This document shows positions 6,379 through 22,585 of a stretch of DNA of 52,001 bases, piece by piece. Source of the DNA: Chloroflexota bacterium (GTDB lineage: Bacteria; Chloroflexota; Limnocylindria; Limnocylindrales; Limnocylindraceae); contig JAPLHQ010000018.1 of assembly GCA_026389555.1 (NCBI GenBank), positions 1 to 52,001 on the forward strand. The letters run 5' to 3'. The position numbers were made by a program, and so were the translations under genes. Numbering within the stretch: the stretch's first letter is position 1; each line of letters begins with the position of its first letter. The notes under the pieces are model-generated. The model worked only from the letters and a program-made list of their open reading frames with translations, had not been told where the DNA came from and did not search any database.

Positions 6379-7231
6379 CCGCACGCCCGCGGCGCTCAAT
6401 GAACGCAAGTGAGAAGTGTGAGAGGAGGCTGAAGACCACAAACATCACAGCGAGAATCCCAAGCTCAACTGGAACAGGAAGGAGCCCGCTAGCGGCGAGT
6501 TGCGGAACGGCGAGTTGTCGCATCGCATCGGCGGCGGGGGCGAGCGGCAGGATCCCGATCGCAAGGAGCCCAAAGATGCCGAGGCTGCGCACGGGGGCGA
6601 AAAGGCCACCCAGGAGTTGCATCGGCTCATTCAGTAGGTCTCCCAGGTGATCCGCCTCCCGACCAGAGACCAAGAAGACGGCGGCAAGACAGACGCCGAG
6701 CGCATACATTGCGGCGATCCCGAGCAGCATCGTCAGGGCGAGAAGGAGTGGTTCTCGGATCTCATACTGTGCGCCGAAGAGGAGTGAGCCGCCAAGGATG
6801 ATGATCCCGGCGCGGAACGCCATGCCAACTGCACCACCAACCGCCATACCGAGCGCGATCGAACCAAGTCCGACGGGCGCTGTGATGTAGAGCGTCATGT
6901 TGCCGCTGTCGCGCTCCCAGCGGAACTGCCCAGCCATCATCCAGATCACTGATGTCCAGAAGGTGAGCAGCGCGCTCGCAAGGATCGTCGCGCTAATCCA
7001 GGCCTCATCGGCGCCACGTGAGCGCAAGAGGAAGACGAACGAACACATGCCGAGGGTTGGAAAGACGAGATCAAAGAAGAGCCACGATGGCTCACGCGAC
7101 ATGCCGAAGATGCGCGGATATGCGCGGCCAACTACCGACTGCGCCGCATGGCGCAACTTATGCGAGAGGCTCCACTCCGTCTCCGCGTAGATACGCGCGT
7201 GCAGATCTTTTGGAACGCCAGCGGCGCTCAC
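6350..7231 (-). CDS. ABC-2 type exporter permease
   Basis: 293 aa with 6 or more TM helices. The GTG start overlaps the ATPase TGA stop (GTGA at 7228-7231). Confidence 0.7.
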   Translation of the reverse strand: MSAAGVPKDLHARIYAETEWSLSHKLRHAAQSVVGRAYPRIFGMSREPSWLFFDLVFPTLGMCSFVFLLRSRGADEAWISATILASALLTFWTSVIWMMAGQFRWERDSGNMTLYITAPVGLGSIALGMAVGGAVGMAFRAGIIILGGSLLFGAQYEIREPLLLALTMLLGIAAMYALGVCLAAVFLVSGREADHLGDLLNEPMQLLGGLFAPVRSLGIFGLLAIGILPLAPAADAMRQLAVPQLAASGLLPVPVELGILAVMFVVFSLLSHFSLAFIERRGRADGKLLTRAD

Positions 7232-8271
7232 AGCGCCTGCTCACTATCTGACTCACTAATGCCACGTCCAACAAGTTGGACGAAGACCTCTTCCAGTGTT
7301 GGCTCACTCTTGGAGATCTCACGAAGGTGTGCCCCAGCAGCGGCGAGCGCGCTGATCACGCCACCAAGCGCGGCGTCTTCGCGAAGCGCGATCGCAAGGC
7401 GCGTCACCGGTGAGCCGACGCCGTTTCCATCAGCTCCATCAGCATCACGCACAACAACAGAGATGACGCCTGGAAGTTCGCGCAACGTTCCAAGGCTCAC
7501 CGCAGCAGGAAGCTCATCAACACCAACAATAAAGAGCGTCTCCTTCTGCACCATGCGCTTCAGTTCAGTTGGCGTCCCCTGCGCAAGGATGCGCCCGTGA
7601 TCAACGATCGCAATACGGTCACACATCTCATCCGCCTCGGCCATGTAGTGCGTTGTGAGCAGCACCGTGCGACCCGGCTGCTCCGCCTGGAAGGCACGGA
7701 CGCGCTCGCGCACATCGCGTGCCGCGGAGACATCGAGTCCAATCGTTGGCTCATCAAGGAAGAGCATCCACGGCTCATTCAAGAATGAACGTGCAAAGTT
7801 CAACTTCTGACGCTGTCCCGTTGAGAGGGCGCTGATCTTCCGGTCACGAATATCCGTAATGCCGAACGCCTCAATCTGGGCGTCAACGCGACGCATCCCT
7901 TCGGCATATGGCATTCCATAGAACTGCGCGAACATTGCGAGCTGCTCGCGTGCTGTGAGGAGGCCATACCCGGAAAAGTCGCCGCCAGCAACAAGGTTCA
8001 TGATGCGCCGAACGCGTGCCGTGTCGCGCACAACATCAAGGCCGAAGATGGATGCGCTCCCGCTACTTGGGAGAAGGAGTGTGCTGAGGATCTTGATCAG
8101 CGTGCTCTTCCCTGCGCCATTCGGCCCGAGGAGTCCGAAGAGCTCACCCGGCTCAATGCGCAGATCAATGTTGTGCAGCGCGGTAACTGAGCCTCCCTTC
8201 GCTTGAAAGACTCGGCCGACGCCGGAGACCTCTACCGCGGCAGCGGAGGCCGCGGGCGTTGAGATAGCCAT
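7228..8271 (-). CDS. ABC transporter ATP-binding protein (DrrA/ABC-2 exporter type) with C-terminal extra domain
   Basis: Walker A GPNGAGKST, signature LSTGQRQK, Walker B LFLDEPT. ATG at 8271 is preceded by GGAGG. ORF-track start 8352 is rejected as an extension. Confidence 0.88.
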   Translation of the reverse strand: MAISTPAASAAAVEVSGVGRVFQAKGGSVTALHNIDLRIEPGELFGLLGPNGAGKSTLIKILSTLLLPSSGSASIFGLDVVRDTARVRRIMNLVAGGDFSGYGLLTAREQLAMFAQFYGMPYAEGMRRVDAQIEAFGITDIRDRKISALSTGQRQKLNFARSFLNEPWMLFLDEPTIGLDVSAARDVRERVRAFQAEQPGRTVLLTTHYMAEADEMCDRIAIVDHGRILAQGTPTELKRMVQKETLFIVGVDELPAAVSLGTLRELPGVISVVVRDADGADGNGVGSPVTRLAIALREDAALGGVISALAAAGAHLREISKSEPTLEEVFVQLVGRGISESDSEQAL

Positions 8272-8376
8272 CTGACCTCCACGTAAGCGTGCGTTCGTGC
8301 CACAGGGGTGCCACGGCAGCGCAGTCGTGAGGAGTCTACAATCAGCAGACACCAGCCAACATGCAGGGGGTTACCT

Positions 8377-10425
8377 ATGGATTCACGACTGGAACAGTCC
8401 GCCATCACCACGATTCGCACCCTTGCGATCGACACCGTCCAAGCGGCAAACTCCGGTCACCCTGGCGCGCCAATGGGCTGTGCGCCGATGGCGCACACGA
8501 TCTGGACGCGACACCTCCGCCACGCGCCGAGCACTCCCGGCTGGTTTGATCGCGACCGATTCGTCCTCTCCAACGGTCATGCGAGTGCACTCCTCTATTC
8601 ACTGCTTCACCTCACCGGCTACGGGCTCACGATTGATGACCTGAAGTCGTTCCGACAGTGGGGCTCGCTGACACCTGGACATCCGGAGTACGGCCTCACC
8701 GCAGGCGTTGAGGCGACCACCGGGCCGCTCGGTCAGGGCTTCGCGAACGGTGTTGGGATGGCGATCGCCGAGCGACGCCTCGCCGCTGAGTTCAATCGAC
8801 CCGGGCACACCGTGGTTGATCACCGCGTCTTCGCGATCGTCTCAGACGGCGACCTCCAAGAAGGACTCGCGTCAGAGGCGGCATCACTCGCTGGTCACCT
8901 CAAGCTCGGCAAGCTGATCTATCTCTGGGATGACAACCTCATCCAGCTTGACGGACCAACATCAACGGCCTGGTCGGAAGACGTGCGCAAGCGATTCGAT
9001 GCATACGGCTGGCACACGAGCAGCGTTGCTGACGGCAACGACGTTGCATCCATTGACGCGGCGATTAGCGCCGCGATCAAGGATGATCGCCCGAGCCTCA
9101 TCGCCGTGCGCACCGTCATCGGCTTCGGTTCGCCGAATAAGGCGGGGAGCCAGAAGTCACACGGCGCACCACTCGGCCCGGACGAGGTGAAGCTCACCAA
9201 GGCCGCGTACGGCGCGAATCCAGATGCAACCTTTGATGTCCCAGCAGATGTTGCCGAGTTCTACCGCGGCGCGATCACCAGCGGCGAGACGCTCGTTGCA
9301 GCGCACACCAAGCGACTCCTCGCCTACGCGACCGCCTTCCCTGCAGAGGCGGCGGAACTCCAGCGCCGCATGGCGGGCGGGCTGCCGAGCGGCTGGGAGC
9401 GCGCGCTTCCAACGTATGAGTTCGGCGGTGATGCGCCAACGCGCAACGTCAGCCAGTCAAGCATCAAGGCGCTCGCCGCGGTGCTGCCAGAACTGATCGG
9501 CGGAAGCGCGGATCTTTCCGAATCAAACCTCACCGACATCCATGATGGCGGCCGCTTCACCGCAAAGGAGTCTGGTCGCAACATCAGCTTCGGTGTACGC
9601 GAACATGCGATGGCGGCGATCACGAACGGAATCGCGTATCATGGCGGACTGATCCCGTTCAGCGCCACCTTCCTCACCTTCAGCGATTACATGCGCGGCT
9701 CACTCCGACTCGCGGCACTTGCTGGACTCGGCAGCATCTTCGTCTTCACCCATGACTCCATTGGTCTTGGCGAAGACGGACCAACGCACCAGCCGGTTGA
9801 ACACTACGCCGCACTTCGCGCCATTCCAAATCTGCGCTTCTTCCGGCCGGGTGATCCGAATGAAGCCGCACAGGCATGGGGCGTTGCGATTGAACGCCGC
9901 GACGCGCCAACGGTGCTCGCCTTCACGCGACAGAAACTGCCCGTGCTACCTGGCTCCATCACTGGAGCGGCGGCTGGCGTAAAGCGCGGCGCATATGTTG
10001 TGCGCGAGGCAAGCACGCAGGCGAAGGCGATCCTCATTGCCACAGGGTCAGAGGTGCACCTCGCCGTTTCCGCAGCAGAACTCCTTGAAGCATCCGGCAC
10101 GCCTACGCGCGTTGTCTCGGCACCATGTCTTGAACTCTTTGGTGATCAAGATGCTGCGTACCGCGAGTCAGTCCTCCCCGCCGCAGTTCGCGCGCGCGTC
10201 GGCATTGAGGCCGGCGTCAGCCTCGGATGGGATCGCTGGACGGGGAGCGATGGCGCAATCATCGCCATGGATCGCTTCGGTGCTTCGGCACCTGCACCGA
10301 AACTCTTCGCTGAATTCGGCTTCACGCCAGAGCGTATTGCAGAGGTTGCGCGCGGCGTGATCGCTGGAACGCACCGGGGTGTGATCCCAACGCCGCACCT
10401 CCACGATGGTCATCAGGTCAGCTGA
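8377..10425 (+). CDS. tkt: transketolase
   Basis: [27 protein letters not shown], a thiamine-PP binding region, and [19 protein letters not shown] at 8377 matches the canonical N-terminus. Confidence 0.95.
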
Positions 10426-16416: not shown

Positions 16417-17177
16417 GCGAACTGCCAGTGCGACGTATTGTTGACGACGCTGCGGCTGCGGCAATCGCAACGGCAGAACTCGTCATCGCTGCCGCGCAGC
16501 ACGCAGTAGACGAGCGTGGCGTCTTTCACCTCTGCACGACGGGGGGAAGCACTCCAGCCGCACTCTATGCGGCACTTCGGGAGCCAGAGCGCGCGGCACG
16601 CATGCCGTGGGGCGCTACGCAGATCTGGTTCGGTGATGATCGTCACGTCCCCCGCACCAGCTCACTCTCCAACCTCGCCCCCCTTGATGCGGTGCTACTC
16701 GCGAGGGACAGCCACGGAGTGACCTCCCCGATCGTCAACGACCAAGTGCACCCATGGCCAACTGATGAAGATGGCCCGAAGGCGGTGAGCGACTATCTTG
16801 CAGCCGCTCGCGCCGCGAAGATCCAACACACCCCTGAAGGTTTCCCGCAGTTTGATCTTGTGCTGATCGGCATTGGCGGCGACTCCCACTGTCTCAGTGT
16901 CTTCCCTGGCTCTCCGCTCACCGCCAGCAACGCACCAGTCGCCGCTCCAGTACCCGCACCAACGCACATTGAGCCGCATGTGCCGCGGCTCTCCTTCTCG
17001 CTCGGCCTCCTCTCGGCTGCACGCGCCGTCTGCGCCACGGTTGTTGGGGCTGGCAAGAGCGCCGCTCTTGCGCGGATCCTCAACGGCGAGGGGACGTTGA
17101 GCGAGGTTCCGGCCAAGGCGGCACTCACCTCAACCGCCACTTGGATCATCGACCGCGCCGCAGCAGCCGATCTTTAG
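16413..17177 (+). CDS. pgl: 6-phosphogluconolactonase
   Basis: LCTTGGSTPAALYAAL and IWFGDDRHVP motifs. 4-nt overlap with opcA. Confidence 0.9.
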   Translation: MSELPVRRIVDDAAAAAIATAELVIAAAQHAVDERGVFHLCTTGGSTPAALYAALREPERAARMPWGATQIWFGDDRHVPRTSSLSNLAPLDAVLLARDSHGVTSPIVNDQVHPWPTDEDGPKAVSDYLAAARAAKIQHTPEGFPQFDLVLIGIGGDSHCLSVFPGSPLTASNAPVAAPVPAPTHIEPHVPRLSFSLGLLSAARAVCATVVGAGKSAALARILNGEGTLSEVPAKAALTSTATWIIDRAAAADL

Positions 17178-17181
17178 CCAA

Positions 17182-17937
17182 CTACGGGACAGTAATTCCC
17201 CACTTTGTCCCGAGCGCGCGAATCACACTCGTCCGTTCGGTTGCGGTAAGCGCACGATCCCAAATCACCACCTCAGAGAGGGAGGCGCGGAGATAGCGCA
17301 TTGCCGCTGATGAATAGATCACGCCAACATGCGTTGCGCTATCGCTGCTGCTGTAACTGAATGAGTACTCTGTTCCTCCATTAATAGAGGCGTAATCAGT
17401 ACCTGCACTATTCATGCGAATCATCAAGATCGCATTCGTGTTGATTGACCCAATGATTCCCGAGAGGATGCTCCCCCCTCCGTTAATTGCACGGAGCCGC
17501 TTTGCATCAACAACGAGCCCGGTTGCACGGTCCGTCTTGCCGAGAAGCGGGTGATATCCCGTGTCACTCCCCCCTCGCATGACGAAGAACGCGGTCATTG
17601 AGTTAAGCGGGATCGGCTGCGCAAGGGCGAGCCCGTTATCCTCAAAGATCAGTTGCGCCCTCCCTGAGACGGCCGTTGCGTACGGCGCCACACCAGATGT
17701 GAGGGCCGTGAGGTGCCGCGCCTCTCCCGACTTATCAAACCAGAAGCGCACGCGTGGCGCGAGACCAAGGGTTGCCGTCTCCGAGCTATCAACCCAGAGT
17801 CGCAGCCCGCTGCTGCTCACACTGCCGAGCGTTGGAATCGTCCCTCCGCTCATCGGAAGGCTCAGCAAAGCACTCCACTGCGCGGCCACGCTCGTCATCA
17901 AGATGAGCAAGGCGAGGACAATGTGCCGACCAGTCAC
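17182..17937 (-). CDS. secreted LamG/concanavalin-A-like lectin domain protein
   Basis: N-terminal signal-like segment IVLALLILMTSVAAQW. The C-terminal motif LSEVVIWDRALTATERTSV is typical of LamG_3 domains. The GTG start overlaps the upstream peptidase TGA stop (GTGA). Confidence 0.6.
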   Translation of the reverse strand: MTGRHIVLALLILMTSVAAQWSALLSLPMSGGTIPTLGSVSSSGLRLWVDSSETATLGLAPRVRFWFDKSGEARHLTALTSGVAPYATAVSGRAQLIFEDNGLALAQPIPLNSMTAFFVMRGGSDTGYHPLLGKTDRATGLVVDAKRLRAINGGGSILSGIIGSINTNAILMIRMNSAGTDYASINGGTEYSFSYSSSDSATHVGVIYSSAAMRYLRASLSEVVIWDRALTATERTSVIRALGTKWGITVP

Positions 17938-18788
17938 GTTGGTCCCCAGAGCAACGGCAGCGTGAGACTCCCCCCGGTTGCAGCGGGGACACCAAGAAGT
18001 GTCACCTTCACCTCGCAGCGAAGGCCGCTCCGGGCTGCCGCTGCGCTCTGCTCCGTTAAGAGTCCACTCGCCTGATCACTCCCGCTCCACTCCGCTGTGA
18101 ATCGGTCACTCGTCTGGGTCCATACGCCTCCGGTAAGTCCTTGACACCTCGTTGCGATACGCAGCGCGCGTGCGAGTGCCTGTGAGGCATCCCCAACGCT
18201 GCCCGTTGGCGGAAGGAGTGCCGCGAAGCCAACAGGATCTATGCGCAGCGCATATGTTGCCGCACAGCGTGAACCGCTTACGCCACATGCGGAAAGGGTG
18301 ATACTCCAGAGTGCGTAGCCGCCAGGAAGGAGCCTCCCTTGCGCATCTGCGCCGGAGATGGAGCGCGCACCCTGCTCCGCCACGACCCCCCCACTACTTT
18401 TCAGTGAGACGCTAACCGGCAGCGATGCGGTGAAGCTCGCCGCCGTGCGTATGGCACGGAACAGGTGGGATGTTGGGATGACGAGAGCGAGCTGGCCCAG
18501 TACGTCGCTACGCTGCACTGGTCGGCTGTCACCGCTGAGGCTCGCGTCGCCCTGCATCCAGAGTTGCTCACCGCTCATCGCCCGTAACCGATGAAGCAAG
18601 CGACGTTCACCATCACGAACTAGCAGGATGCTCCCAATGCGTAGTTGATCAGTTGGCGGACCGATCGTCACCACGCTGTCGCCTGCGCGAATGCTCGGCG
18701 CCATTGACTCTCCATCAACGATGGAGAGTCGCACGTTAAAGAGCGCGCAGGCAGCGCCGATCACGATGGCGACGAGCACGGTACGCAC
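17934..18788 (-). CDS. SipW-type (Ser/His, ER/archaeal-like) signal peptidase I fused to a ~180-aa C-terminal TasA-like domain
   Basis: N-terminal TM helix, then catalytic-Ser box VDGESMAPS, His box RLLHRL and MQGDASLSGDSRPV. The S26 core ends near residue 105. The remaining roughly 180 aa begin AASFTASLPVSVSL and contain a GAD...LPGG...SITLS block resembling the neighbouring gene. Confidence 0.7.
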   Translation of the reverse strand: MRTVLVAIVIGAACALFNVRLSIVDGESMAPSIRAGDSVVTIGPPTDQLRIGSILLVRDGERRLLHRLRAMSGEQLWMQGDASLSGDSRPVQRSDVLGQLALVIPTSHLFRAIRTAASFTASLPVSVSLKSSGGVVAEQGARSISGADAQGRLLPGGYALWSITLSACGVSGSRCAATYALRIDPVGFAALLPPTGSVGDASQALARALRIATRCQGLTGGVWTQTSDRFTAEWSGSDQASGLLTEQSAAAARSGLRCEVKVTLLGVPAATGGSLTLPLLWGPT

Positions 18789-18790
18789 CG

Positions 18791-19405
18791 CTACTGCGTG
18801 ACGTTGCGCGCCTCAAAGATCAGGGTGATCCCGGCGGAAGAGTCTGCCCCGTCCGTTGCGCTTGCTGGGAGGCTGATCGTGAACGTGTAGACGGCACGAG
18901 TGGCGTTGATCCCGGTGAGCGAGCCGCCGTTCTCCGATCGCCAGAGAGACCCGATCGGTGATGTGAAGGAGGCTGCCGCAGCGAGGCCCGCAAAGCTCCC
19001 TGAGTAGATAGTTTCTGGCGTCCTGCCACCAATTGACCGTGTGATCTGTACCTGCAGTGCCCCACCTAGCCCAGCGCTATTGAGCGGCGTTCCACTCGAA
19101 TCAGCCCGGAGCGCGATCTCCGTGTAGGCCGTTGGGAGTGTGACCGTTGACGCGTTGGTAACGGTGACGCTCTGGGTAAGCGTTGTCCCTGGGCCGATCG
19201 CTGAAAGGTCTGCGCCGCCGAAGGTGAGGCTACTCACATCGCCTGCGCTGAGCTCTACTCTTCCGCTCTCAAGCAGCGCATCGACCGGTTGTGTTGCGGT
19301 AAATGCGGCGCTGGTGCTGCTTATGGTTACTACAAGGGCAAGCACCGCTCCACACGCGGCGCCCGCGAGTCGCCAGTGCCTTAGGCCATCCACGCCTTTG
19401 CTCAT
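18791..19405 (-). CDS. TasA/camelysin-like secreted protein with SipW-cognate-type signal peptide
   Basis: Signal region RHWRLAGAACGAVLALVVTISSTSAAFTATQP (compare B. subtilis TasA GGGTWAAFND). ESGRVELSAGD compares with TasA ASGTLDLSAKE. Also an IGPGTTLTQSVTVTN block and a C-terminal ITLIFEARNV. GAGGAG Shine-Dalgarno motif 6 nt before the ATG. Confidence 0.62.
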   Translation of the reverse strand: MSKGVDGLRHWRLAGAACGAVLALVVTISSTSAAFTATQPVDALLESGRVELSAGDVSSLTFGGADLSAIGPGTTLTQSVTVTNASTVTLPTAYTEIALRADSSGTPLNSAGLGGALQVQITRSIGGRTPETIYSGSFAGLAAAASFTSPIGSLWRSENGGSLTGINATRAVYTFTISLPASATDGADSSAGITLIFEARNVTQ

Positions 19406-19515
19406 TCGTCACTCCTCTCGGCGAAGTGGCGGAGGTGAGGCGGCTCAGCATCCTCACATACGGCGGATATTGTGCGCGTACGCCCCACCCCCTCGCATCG
19501 GCTAGGATTCCGCGG

Positions 19516-20100
19516 ATGGCTGCTCAACGGATCCCATGGCTCCACGTGATTGCTGGCTGCATGAGCAGCGGCAAGACGGCCGAGGTCGTCCGCCTCCTCA
19601 GCAGGCGCGAGATCGCCGGGCAGAGCGTGCTCCTGATCACGCCTGCGCGAGACACCCGAGTAGCCCCAGGTGAAGTGGTGAGCCGCACCGGTACGCGCTT
19701 CCCAAGCGTGGTGGCGGCAGATGCGAGCGCCATCCGGACAGAGGTGCTGAAGCGCAATCCGGATGCGGTGGCAATCGAGGAGGCGCAGTTCTTCGGGGCT
19801 GACCTCCCAGGGATCATTGAAGAACTCGTCGCGGGACCTCGGACCGTGATCGTGAGTGGCCTTGACCAAGACTTTGCGGGGCGCCCATTCGCAACGATCC
19901 CTGAACTCTTGGCCCGTGCCGATGAAGTGACGAAGTTGACGGCGATCTGCGTCAACTGCGGCGCTGAAGCAACTCGAACCCAGCGCATGCGCAACGGTCA
20001 ACCGGCCAGCGTCAGTGACGAGCTGATCGTCATCGGCGGTATGGGTGGCGATGACACATACGAGGCGCGCTGTCGCGCCTGCCACGTCGTCCTCCCGTAG
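19516..20100 (+). CDS. tdk: thymidine kinase
   Basis: P-loop GCMSSGKTAEVV, EAQFF, and zinc cysteines CVNCG...CRACH. ATG at 19516. ORF-track start 19303 is rejected as an extension. Confidence 0.9.
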   Translation: MAAQRIPWLHVIAGCMSSGKTAEVVRLLSRREIAGQSVLLITPARDTRVAPGEVVSRTGTRFPSVVAADASAIRTEVLKRNPDAVAIEEAQFFGADLPGIIEELVAGPRTVIVSGLDQDFAGRPFATIPELLARADEVTKLTAICVNCGAEATRTQRMRNGQPASVSDELIVIGGMGGDDTYEARCRACHVVLP

Positions 20101-21430: not shown

Positions 21431-22585
21431 CTACTCGAGGGGGAGCAGCACCTCGAGCGGCACCCACGAGGCCCCCACTAAATCAACGCTTGCCGGAAGG
21501 TTCGCAAGAGCAAGCTCTAAGACGCGTCGGTCGATCAACTCGTCAATACTTGGCGCACTTGACGCACGTCCAACCTCAACCGCCTGTGCGACCGCGGCTG
21601 TCAGCGCCTGCTCGTCAATATCGAATGCACCGTTCGGTGCAGGCCAGAGTGTGCCGTTAAAGGCGTTCACCGACCAGAGCAGTCCGTCACCATAACGATC
21701 GGCAATCCCAGAGTCTTCCAGCACCACGGCGCAGGCGGCTGCATCATCTCTGCATGCAGCGAGGCCATCTGCAATGGCGATCAGGGTAAGCGCCAGAGCA
21801 ATGCGGTGATCTTCGTTCTCTAGCGTACTGCGCAGCGCCCAGATCCCAATCCCAGGTGCTGCAGCCGTTAGCCCGCTCTCATCTGCCAGCGCAACGGTAC
21901 CGTCGGGTCCAACTGGAAGGCCGCTATCGAGGTCATAGAACTCCTGAAGACGTGCTGCACCGTCATAGCTTGTCACCGCGGTAGCGGCGTAGGTGCCATC
22001 AAAGAGGCCGTACGGATCAAATGGGAGCGAAGAGTCTTCAGGGAAAGAGATCATGACACCTGATGGATCAAGCCCTGCGGCACTCAACGCTGCAAGAAGT
22101 GGCACGTCGTCGCCTGGTCGCCCCTGGACAAGGAGTGAGCCGCCAGCTAGATCACTGAGTGAGGTTGCCCCCTTCGCTGGGGCAGCAAGCTGCATCCCAT
22201 AGGTGCGCTGAAGCCCTGCGATCATCACGAGGTCGTTCCCCGCCTCACGCGCAATCAGTGCCGCGGCAGGTGTGGCGAAGAAGAGATCGGTCTGCCCGTC
22301 GCGATCGCGCACCGCAAAGGCATCTTCGCCTGCGTATGGGATCACGATCTCCACTGAAACGCCGGCTCCCGCAATCGACTCTGACCCTGCCGCCCGCGTC
22401 ACCGCCGAAGCGAGCGCGTCTGGGGCGCCTGGGAGGTGAACCGCGACCGCGATTTCTCTTGAAGGGATCAGTGATCCAGCGATCGAACTTGCGCTCGGTT
22501 CAACGCTGCCACCGATCGGTGGTCGACACGCCGCGACGATGACGAGTGAGAGGGCGACGCGTGCCGCCATGCGAAGCGCGTTCAC
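21431..22585 (-). CDS. lipoprotein, periplasmic substrate-binding-protein-like (NMT1/SsuA-like fold suspected)
   Basis: Lipobox LVIVAAC. The blocks [48 protein letters not shown] and [16 protein letters not shown] resemble NMT1-type binding proteins. GTG 22585 overlaps the pstB TGA stop; ATG 22570 is the alternative start. Confidence 0.5.

Follow-up and report, generated by a model that had tools for sequence, protein, structure and literature searches.

TasA of Bacillus subtilis polymerises by donor-strand exchange: the mature protein starts at A28-F29, its residues 28-38 complete the next subunit in the fibre, and F29 is one of the contacts of this strand (PMC9674648). TapA, whose N-terminus resembles the TasA donor strand, nucleates assembly, and both proteins are processed by the signal peptidase SipW (PMC9674648, PMC10151520). 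Homologues belonging to the Pfam family PF12389 (Peptidase_M73) were noted in Chloroflexota in 2022 (PMC9245690), and AbpX homologues have also been reported from this phylum (bioRxiv 10.64898/2026.01.04.697558; PMC9245690; PMC12518558). In a preprint of January 2026, TasA-superfamily loci are described as combining a major subunit and minor subunits with tip proteins that differ in fold, a TIGR02228 peptidase of their own and a DUF5305 accessory. This accessory is an extracellular beta-sandwich, and some loci, such as that of the Chloroflexota member Anaerolinea thermophila, have it as a fusion with the peptidase (bioRxiv 10.64898/2026.01.04.697558). Here we analyse a locus of three genes (genes 1, 2 and 3; Table 1) in a stretch of 52,001 nucleotides from a member of the Limnocylindraceae (contig JAPLHQ010000018.1 of assembly GCA_026389555.1, positions 1 to 52,001; the whole stretch is called the window below), and propose that it probably encodes a minimal system for TasA-type surface fibres (or a matrix) in the Limnocylindria, a class of freshwater Chloroflexota. 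Its members are abundant planktonic bacteria of lake surface waters, which have been argued to be monoderm and to possess Sec and Tat export only (PMC6169038).

Gene 1 encodes a divergent jelly-roll protein that belongs to the TasA/camelysin superfamily and carries a predicted signal peptide at its N-terminus, as a sequence-only reading of the window had proposed. An AlphaFold model (24 relatives; predicted template modelling score, pTM, 0.68) displays a beta-sandwich core and a disordered N-terminus, and the only PDB structures that this model matches in a Foldseek search at E <= 0.001 are two of TasA, 5OF2 and 5OF1 (E 5e-4, probability 1.00, template modelling (TM) score 0.42-0.44). Transitive profile searches point the same way. 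Run against 1.84 billion representative proteins, the gene 1 family profile retrieves 37 matches in all (E <= 0.001), among which the distant, full-length matches P0322, P0323, P0326, P0330 and P0332 (E 6e-9 to 5e-5) all pass the gathering score of PF12389, and the distant relatives P0323 and P0324 exceed the cut-off of TIGR04088, the model of the SipW-dependent-type signal peptide. When the gene 1 family is compared by hhalign with the PF12389-positive relatives, the two align with 99.8% probability (E 2.2e-28) over 177 columns. One of these PF12389-positive relatives sits in a Firmicute cluster that combines two S26 peptidases with many Peptidase_M73 paralogues. The NCBIfam TasA model also recovers gene 1 directly, as a weak N-terminal match (E 0.008). 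A side observation from these searches concerns P0319 (L023:5134-6873, from a brine metagenome), a protein of 579 amino acids (aa) whose TasA-like jelly roll is interrupted by a long RCC1-repeat insert, such that positions 11-109 and 131-203 of the gene 1 hidden Markov model (HMM) match its residues 78-178 and 569-639; a plain TasA-like gene of 210 aa (1581-2213) lies a few genes away in the same locus.

Gene 1 contains a single hydrophobic segment, and cleavage is predicted between A33 and A34 by analogy with the mature start of TasA at A28-F29 (PMC9674648). The stretch from residue 27 to 41, around T31-S-A-A-F-T-A-T38, is the most conserved of the protein (0.41 bits of entropy as against 0.92 elsewhere); T31, A33, A34, F35 and T36 are invariant in 106 relatives, and likewise the string TSA/AFTAT (the slash marks the predicted cut). 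F35 corresponds in position to F29 of TasA, one of its donor-strand contacts (PMC9674648), and residues 34-52 are unstructured in the monomer model (predicted local distance difference test, pLDDT, < 50). By analogy with TasA, this N-terminal segment may serve as a donor strand.

The catalytic residues of gene 2 identify its product as a predicted type I signal peptidase of the SipW/Sec11 type with an intact Ser/His/Asp active site, in agreement with its earlier assignment to the Ser/His class of S26 peptidases. Its relatives, most of them 281-288 aa long, align over the full length, and S28, H66, D81 and D87 are invariant in 28 aligned sequences. The best sequence matches of the family profile in the PDB are human SEC11A and SEC11C, with whose motifs SGSMEP, IVHRV and KGDNNAVDD the Ser, His and Asp of gene 2 align, whereas SpsB of Staphylococcus aureus, a bacterial P-type enzyme, has a Lys in place of the catalytic His. 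The best NCBIfam model is TIGR02228, of the archaeal/endoplasmic reticulum (ER) type (E 6e-7; 29.4 bits, below the cut-off of 51.85), and Pfam Peptidase_S26 scores 19.6 bits against a threshold of 22.9; at relaxed E-values S24 is matched by all 28 of the relatives and S26 by 27 of them. In the predicted fold the N-terminal 105 residues adopt the S24/S26 architecture and match SipA (4n31, E 3.6e-4), SEC11A/C, LexA and SpsB. A predicted helix at residues 2-16 is the sole hydrophobic window of the protein, no further hydrophobic segment being found after about residue 20, and the chain ends with a beta-sandwich. The enzyme would thus be anchored in the membrane by its N-terminus with an extracytoplasmic catalytic domain and, judging from the operon structure and from a cleavage-site motif common to its neighbours, would process the adjacent TasA-like and accessory proteins. 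Two gene 2 relatives, P0186 and P0191, are chimeric gene calls joined to a 3-oxoacyl-ACP (acyl carrier protein) reductase and an ATP-binding cassette (ABC) permease respectively, probably as a result of frameshifts or misassembly in short metagenome contigs.

Gene 3 appears to encode a LamG-like protein, a relationship that is weak but consistent and is seen at the level of the family, where it upholds the earlier description of this gene as LamG-like. The window protein itself reaches Laminin_G_3 (PF13385) only at E 0.012 (16.2 as against 27.6 bits, over the C-terminal third of the model), and 16 of 22 relatives match that family at E <= 0.1, the best of them at E 4.3e-7; the family profile has no match among PDB sequences. 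A signal peptide is predicted at residues 1-19, with one N-terminal hydrophobic segment and cleavage between V17-A18-A19 and Q20. What follows the predicted cut is a conserved QWSA..L.LPVSAG segment (L-x-L-P-V-S-A-G), in which W21 is invariant among 64 relatives, preceded by A19 in 63 of the 64 (both are invariant in the 22-sequence alignment). No similarity was found between gene 3 and the gene 1 or gene 2 profiles, and searches of PDB sequences with the profiles of genes 2 and 3 retrieve no chain of TapA, the protein with the immunoglobulin (Ig)-like domain. A TapA-like role for gene 3 would be by analogy only.

A motif of the form A-(x)-[F/W]-[S/T]-A...P-V, with its aromatic residue at the position of TasA F29, follows the predicted cleavage site in all three proteins. 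In gene 1 it reads A33/A-F35-T-A-T-x-P-V and in gene 3 A19/Q-W21-S-A..L-P-V-S. In gene 2 it lies in the linker behind the catalytic domain, where R-T-A-A-S-F-T-A-S-L-P-V parallels T-S-A-A-F-T-A-T-Q-P-V of gene 1; in the gene 2 family columns F119 of this linker is invariant and A117 nearly so, and residues 111-122 are poorly modelled (pLDDT < 50). The family consensus of gene 2, A-A-Q-F-T-A-E-L-P-V-S, also resembles by eye that of gene 3, A-A-Q-W-S-A-A-L-S-L-P-V-S. As a regular expression the motif matches these three alone among the 320 six-frame open reading frames (ORFs) of the window; the expression was written after the three proteins had been seen, so this result is only suggestive.

The three genes are translationally coupled and inherited together. 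The sequence-only reading had described three minus-strand genes, at the positions of Table 1, lying between pentose-phosphate genes and tdk and separated by a 2-nucleotide gap and a GTGA overlap, and all of this is borne out by the ORF list, by direct reading of the junctions and by the Pfam labels of the flanks (pgl/opcA/zwf on one side, thymidine kinase, tdk, on the other). The peptide strings that it quoted (SSTSAAFTATQP, ESGRVELSAGD, IGPGTTLTQSVTVTN, ITLIFEARNV, GESMAPS, LLHRL and QGDAS..D) are likewise all present in the translations. The stop codon TAG of gene 1 (18793-18791) is followed by two nucleotides (cg) and then by the GTG of gene 2 at 18788, the GTGA shared by genes 2 and 3 occupies 17937-17934, and 4 nucleotides separate gene 3 from the stop of the convergent pgl. 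A ribosome-binding site, GGAG, is found at 19415-19412, 6 nucleotides before the ATG of gene 1.

Table 1. Positions of the three genes and of their predicted parts in the window
Feature	Position	Strand	Extent and start	Description
Gene 1	18791-19405	minus	204 aa, ATG start	Divergent TasA/camelysin superfamily protein (predicted), proposed major fibre subunit
Gene 1, signal peptide	19307-19405	minus	aa 1-33	Predicted; charged n-region, h-region AGAACGAVLALVVTI, c-region end T31-S32-A33
Gene 1, N-terminal segment	19250-19306	minus	aa 34-52	Proposed donor strand and next segment (AFTATQPVDALLESGRVEL)
Gene 2	17934-18788	minus	284 aa, GTG start	Predicted membrane-anchored S26 signal peptidase with C-terminal beta-sandwich
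Gene 2, catalytic domain	18474-18731	minus	aa 20-105	ER/archaeal/SipW type: Ser28 (GESMAPS), His66 (LLHRL), Asp81/Asp87 (GDASLSGD)
Gene 2, linker	18414-18452	minus	aa 113-125	IRTAASFTASLPV, copy of the gene 1 cleavage/donor-strand motif
Gene 2, C-terminal domain	17937-18416	minus	aa 125-284	Predicted extracytoplasmic beta-sandwich, invariant Cys215 and Cys258
Gene 3	17182-17937	minus	251 aa, GTG start	Predicted secreted LamG/concanavalin-like protein, proposed accessory (nucleator or tip adhesin)
Gene 1/tdk intergenic region	19406-19515			Presumed site of the operon promoter, from position only

The mechanically called tdk ORF (19303-20100, plus strand) begins within gene 1. The alignments of its relatives start at about 19516 (MAAQRIPWLHV...), which implies that the real gene 1 and tdk do not overlap and leaves about 110 base pairs of divergent intergenic DNA between them. 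Since a sigma-70 consensus scan of 16900-19700 found no promoter-like site, the operon promoter is placed there from position only. A consensus scan of the same region returned two terminator-like sites, which is not above chance expectation, and Rfam and tRNA scans of the whole window gave no match.

Each of the three proteins has 70-131 database relatives (36-99% identity), nearly all of them from freshwater metagenomes or metagenome-assembled genomes (MAGs), and those that are named belong to Chloroflexi/Chloroflexota or to Candidatus Limnocylindrus (class Candidatus Limnocylindria). For a survey of synteny, one genome per GTDB species was scanned with the gene 2 alignment, which yielded 17 loci with a substantial gene 2 match (39-80% identity). 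A further match, in a MAG of the Gemmatimonadaceae (L021), is short and covers the peptidase only. The record titles of the 17 loci name Limnocylindrus, Aquidulcis or Chloroflexota, except for two generic MAGs and one Thermoflexus hugenholtzii (L011). Genes 1, 2 and 3 are adjacent in this order in all 17 of these Limnocylindria loci, as far as the contigs extend, and contigs that are long enough carry pgl/opcA on one flank and, as a rule, tdk on the opposite flank. Compared with the window, these loci have gene 1 proteins of 56-82%, gene 2 proteins of 39-80% and gene 3 proteins of 36-82% identity; genes 2 and 3 therefore diverge faster than the housekeeping flanks (tdk, 80-99%). In view of the number of relatives and of the intact trio, in the same order, in 17 other genomes, the genes are real and not chance ORFs of high-GC (guanine plus cytosine) DNA. 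The same constancy of order makes the trio a core locus, vertically inherited within the class Limnocylindria, and not an accessory island. The co-localisation of the three genes expected for relatives by the sequence-only reading was thus found throughout the survey, but its description of the block as accessory-looking was wrong. No outcome that this reading had named as contradicting it was observed, whether for the family of gene 1, for the catalytic Ser/His of the peptidase or for co-localisation. The GC content of the block, 60-63%, equals that of the remainder of the window.

Several further features were seen in the neighbourhoods of these loci. At 21431-22585 (minus strand) the window carries a lipoprotein-like gene of 384 aa, a 46%-identical homologue of which stands directly upstream of gene 1 in L001, where a phosphate-type ABC transporter is inserted between tdk and the trio, ahead of this homologue. 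The surroundings of the trio can accordingly rearrange between species while the trio itself stays intact. This 363-aa upstream protein of L001 was considered as a part of the system and rejected, being the homologue of window 21431-22585 and mobile in position. In 8 of the 17 loci (L011-L015, L016:5513-6637 minus, L017 and L019) a multi-pass membrane protein of 374 aa is encoded between gene 3 and pgl; the L016 version passes the Pfam model PMT (protein O-mannosyltransferase; 23.9 as against 22.7 bits). This gene is absent from the whole window and was for that reason rejected as a system component. A link to glycosylation is conceivable, given the PMT-like gene and the 27% Ser plus Thr content of the mature gene 1 protein. 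The locus L011 (CAMAXG010000004.1), titled 'Thermoflexus hugenholtzii JAD2 isolate MH-08apr19-222', possesses a Limnocylindria-type trio together with pgl/opcA, and since its identities equal those of the Limnocylindrus/Aquidulcis MAGs the Thermoflexus label is probably wrong.

These features suggest how the proposed system might work. The gene 1 protein would be exported through Sec and then cleaved at TSA/AFTAT by the peptidase of gene 2. Its freed N-terminal strand (AFTATxPV...SGxVxL) would then insert into the next subunit, in the manner of TasA donor-strand exchange, and thereby build an extracellular filament. The gene 3 protein, in which A/QWSA..LPV is set on a lectin fold, could act like TapA or an archaeal tip protein by contributing the initial donor strand and an adhesin cap at one end of the fibre. 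Finally, the C-terminal domain of gene 2, with its start AA/SFTASLPV, might be released as a minor subunit, or else remain tethered as a membrane-proximal anchor or nucleation site. Polymerisation of gene 1 is suggested only indirectly, by the conserved N-terminal segment, and both fibre formation and the roles given here to gene 3 and to the C-terminal domain of gene 2 are proposals drawn from these features.

Several observations weigh against this proposal. Gene 1 matches no Pfam family at E <= 1, so that the PF12389 gathering score is not reached, and none of the 120 listed gene 1 relatives has a precomputed Pfam domain. The TIGR04088 model does not match gene 1 either, and searching PDB sequences with the gene 1 protein by itself or with its profile gave chance-level matches only (EF-P, a pectate lyase, a crystal protein) and did not reach TasA. 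Because direct searches nearly failed, the link between gene 1 and TasA needed the fold and the transitive profile evidence, and the structural match is itself modest in TM score, partly because 47 N-terminal residues of the gene 1 model are disordered. The N-terminal likeness of gene 3 to the other two proteins is detected by eye and by no HMM. In gene 2 no hydrophobic h-region precedes the linker motif, which makes cleavage there by a membrane-surface signal peptidase uncertain, and hhalign comparisons of its C-terminal domain with the gene 1 and Peptidase_M73 profiles, with and without the motif and with AlphaFold secondary structure, give probabilities of 0.1-3%. Moreover, the relatives of TasA include camelysin, annotated as a cell-surface protease, and the trio has housekeeping genes around it in all genomes examined, which makes a role of gene 2 as a general signal peptidase conceivable.

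For the C-terminal domain of gene 2 the model is confident (pLDDT about 80-94) and comprises a beta-sandwich with three short helices and a putative disulphide; the invariant Cys215 and Cys258 would fit an extracellular location. The domain matches no Pfam family in any of the 28 relatives, and in a Foldseek search with the entire gene 2 model the peptidase domain prevails, with only low-probability beta-sandwich matches for the remainder. Within the set of 320 window ORFs, the gene 2 family HMM finds gene 1 as its second-best match (E 5e-4), laying the linker onto gene 1 residues 30-82, the gene 1 HMM finds gene 2 as its second-best match (E 0.083), and an independent Peptidase_M73 HMM has gene 2 as its second match (E 0.08). 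These HMM alignments are collinear through the A-x-F-T motif, a G-x-V strand, a P-G strand and an L-A-x-x-L helix, and the order and length of the secondary-structure elements of the domain are collinear with gene 1. However, the alignable part is confined to its first 50-80 residues or so (E 5e-4 to 0.15 in this search space of 320 ORFs), for which reason, the profile comparisons not being significant, we did not adopt the description of the domain as TasA-like. The TasA-type motif at its N-terminus is real, and the domain proper may or may not be homologous to TasA. Of the peptidase-TasA fusion put forward in the sequence-only reading, what survives is a peptidase fused to a beta-sandwich that begins with a TasA-type N-terminal motif.

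It is possible, and we advance it tentatively, that gene 2 encodes a signal peptidase fused to its own substrate: the C-terminal domain would be a degenerate TasA/TapA-like module whose donor motif is self-cut or used in the tethered state, so that one polypeptide would combine the enzyme with the anchor or nucleator while the LamG lectin would cap the distal end. An explanation that we find doubtful makes the domain an integral part of the peptidase that assists it or recognises its substrates, comparable to DUF5305 or to eukaryotic SPC22/23, and not a fibre component; the FTA motif of the linker would then be a relic or a regulatory pseudo-substrate, and the rest of the locus would still form a TasA-like fibre. 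The fusion of a DUF5305 beta-sandwich to the peptidase in the TasA-superfamily locus of Anaerolinea thermophila (bioRxiv 10.64898/2026.01.04.697558) offers a precedent for such an accessory, and both the non-significant comparison of the domain with TasA-like profiles and the missing h-region ahead of the linker motif are consistent with it. Against this, DUF5305 itself was rejected as an identity of the domain: none of the 28 gene 2 relatives has a DUF5305 match at E <= 5, and the domain lacks the pair of membrane helices and the cytoplasmic module by which DUF5305 is defined. The best 50 fold matches of gene 2 include no SPC22/23 chain. The pTM of the gene 2 model is 0.55 despite the high pLDDT of both domains, and hence no confident packing of the C-terminal domain on the catalytic domain is predicted. 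Further, the resemblance in the linker runs on to F-T-A-x-x-P-V, as in gene 1.

Another explanation dispenses with the filament: gene 1 would encode a camelysin-type protein, secreted or at the cell surface, that acts as a protease or coat protein and does not polymerise, and gene 3 an independent secreted lectin or glycan-binding protein, both matured by gene 2. PF12389 is indeed named after camelysin, a reported metallo-endopeptidase (Pfam description), and biofilm fibres are less expected in planktonic bacteria such as Limnocylindria (PMC6169038). We consider this unlikely, since the structurally characterised members TasA, AbpA, AbpX and CanX all form donor-strand-complemented filaments (PMC9674648, PMC9245690, PMC12518558), the conservation peak of gene 1 coincides with its predicted mature N-terminus, a pattern that suits a donor strand and is not readily explained by enzymatic activity, and no metal-binding motif was noticed in gene 1. 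That gene 2 is a general housekeeping type I signal peptidase of small genomes, next to two secreted proteins by incidental synteny, is very improbable: a core locus that all genomes examined have between tdk and the pentose-phosphate genes and the Sec- and Tat-only export of freshwater Chloroflexi MAGs (PMC6169038) would suit such an enzyme, but the translational coupling (2-nucleotide gap and GTGA overlap), a cleavage-site motif common to both neighbours and present in no other window ORF, the faster evolution of genes 2 and 3 relative to tdk, and the use of an ER-type peptidase as the dedicated one in other TasA loci (the loci compared below; PMC9674648) speak against it.

If the proposed TasA-type system is real, a conserved fibre with a lectin partner would be the main candidate surface appendage of Limnocylindria, with possible roles in attachment to particles, to algae or of the cells to each other; the Limnocylindria genome papers that we checked make no mention of a TasA-type fibre or such an appendage. 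It would be a very small, chaperone-free system in which the sequence shows the peptidase, a candidate anchor or nucleator and a protein resembling a tip, and for that reason might provide the donor-strand-exchange field with a compact model for the coupling of processing to assembly. As the gene 1 family escapes PF12389, surveys based on that family undercount TasA-like systems in Chloroflexota. Besides this subunit family, a notable feature is the fusion of a peptidase to a domain that starts with the cleavage/donor-strand motif of the substrate, an architecture that recurs in other high-GC loci. Should it indeed join a peptidase to its substrate, its recurrence in the unrelated high-GC loci L027 and L024 would point to a general and previously undescribed way of coupling processing to the assembly of chaperone-free donor-strand fibres, and would furnish a Rosetta-stone argument for a SipW-nucleator complex in Bacillus too. 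A peptidase fused to a substrate-like module was found described neither in the literature searched nor in the papers on TasA systems; searches on TIGR04088, TIGR04089 and 'alternate-type signal peptide' found no papers, and those on SipW fusions nothing relevant.

A comparison with loci of other lineages places these features in context. Three high-GC loci, L027, L024 and L025, resemble the window locus in that a subunit of the Peptidase_M73 type stands beside a TIGR02228-positive peptidase. Behind the peptidase of L027 (812-1843; TIGR02228, 74.4 bits) come two further hydrophobic segments, then the whole of a SipW-type signal/donor motif (...AVSRAAFVGAEGNSGNTFQASTLG...; AVSRAAFVGAEGNSGNTF) and finally a domain that is FN3-like. 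A second such peptidase, in L024 (5861-6676; TIGR02228, 56.6 bits), runs on into SSAASWAGS and then an fn3 match. Both thus share with gene 2 the fusion of the peptidase to a C-terminal extracellular beta domain that starts with A-A-x-[F/W]; L027 differs in that it retains a complete internal signal peptide and has an FN3-like domain, whereas gene 2 has no h-region and carries an orphan beta-sandwich. The locus L025 also contains two TasA-like subunits and a separate SipW-type peptidase, and encodes a protein of 523 aa (7079-8650) in which three CWB2 cell-wall-binding repeats and a proline-rich spacer are combined with a TasA-like domain that ends the chain and has no donor-strand region; this protein looks like a wall anchor of a TasA-like fibre.

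Among surface-fibre operons of a different kind, that of Streptococcus pyogenes also includes an S26-fold protein, SipA/LepA, which is required for pilus polymerisation and ranks near the top of the fold matches of gene 2. SipA is devoid of the catalytic residues and serves pili that are assembled by sortase. In contrast, gene 2 keeps its Ser/His/Asp, and no sortase is present among the genes of the window locus.

The window locus has several parallels with tapA-sipW-tasA of B. subtilis: both consist of three abutting or overlapping genes, with a jelly-roll subunit of the TasA superfamily whose mature form begins, in gene 1 by prediction, with A-F, a dedicated Ser/His peptidase, and a third secreted protein whose N-terminus resembles the donor strand of the subunit, by eye in the case of gene 3 (PMC9674648, PMC10151520). 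They differ in that the gene order of the window is subunit-peptidase-accessory, the subunit is too divergent for PF12389, and the accessory is LamG-like in place of the Ig-like fold of TapA. The second membrane segment of SipW is absent from gene 2, which instead adds an extracytoplasmic beta-sandwich of 160 aa, and the host is a planktonic Chloroflexota bacterium and not a Firmicute.

The loci of AbpA/AbpB, AbpX and the Tafi pili are modular, as is the present one, in combining a major subunit and a dedicated TIGR02228-type peptidase with varied tip or minor components, membrane anchors and peptidase-accessory fusions (bioRxiv 10.64898/2026.01.04.697558; PMC9245690; PMC12518558). Unlike their subunits, gene 1 represents a separate, lineage-restricted family (the 37 representatives in the search given above). 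The peptidase associated with AbpX has ten membrane helices, as against one in gene 2, and the domain fused to the peptidase in gene 2 is not DUF5305. Since peptidase fusions and varied tips have meanwhile been described (bioRxiv 10.64898/2026.01.04.697558), the novelty of the locus is smaller than the sequence-only reading had supposed; a LamG tip is not mentioned in the papers on these loci, and neither LamG nor a lectin was found in the text of that preprint. Taken together, TasA-superfamily loci with a dedicated peptidase, tip proteins and fusions were known already, and what the window adds to them is a lineage-specific TasA-type locus with a subunit family that is invisible to Pfam.

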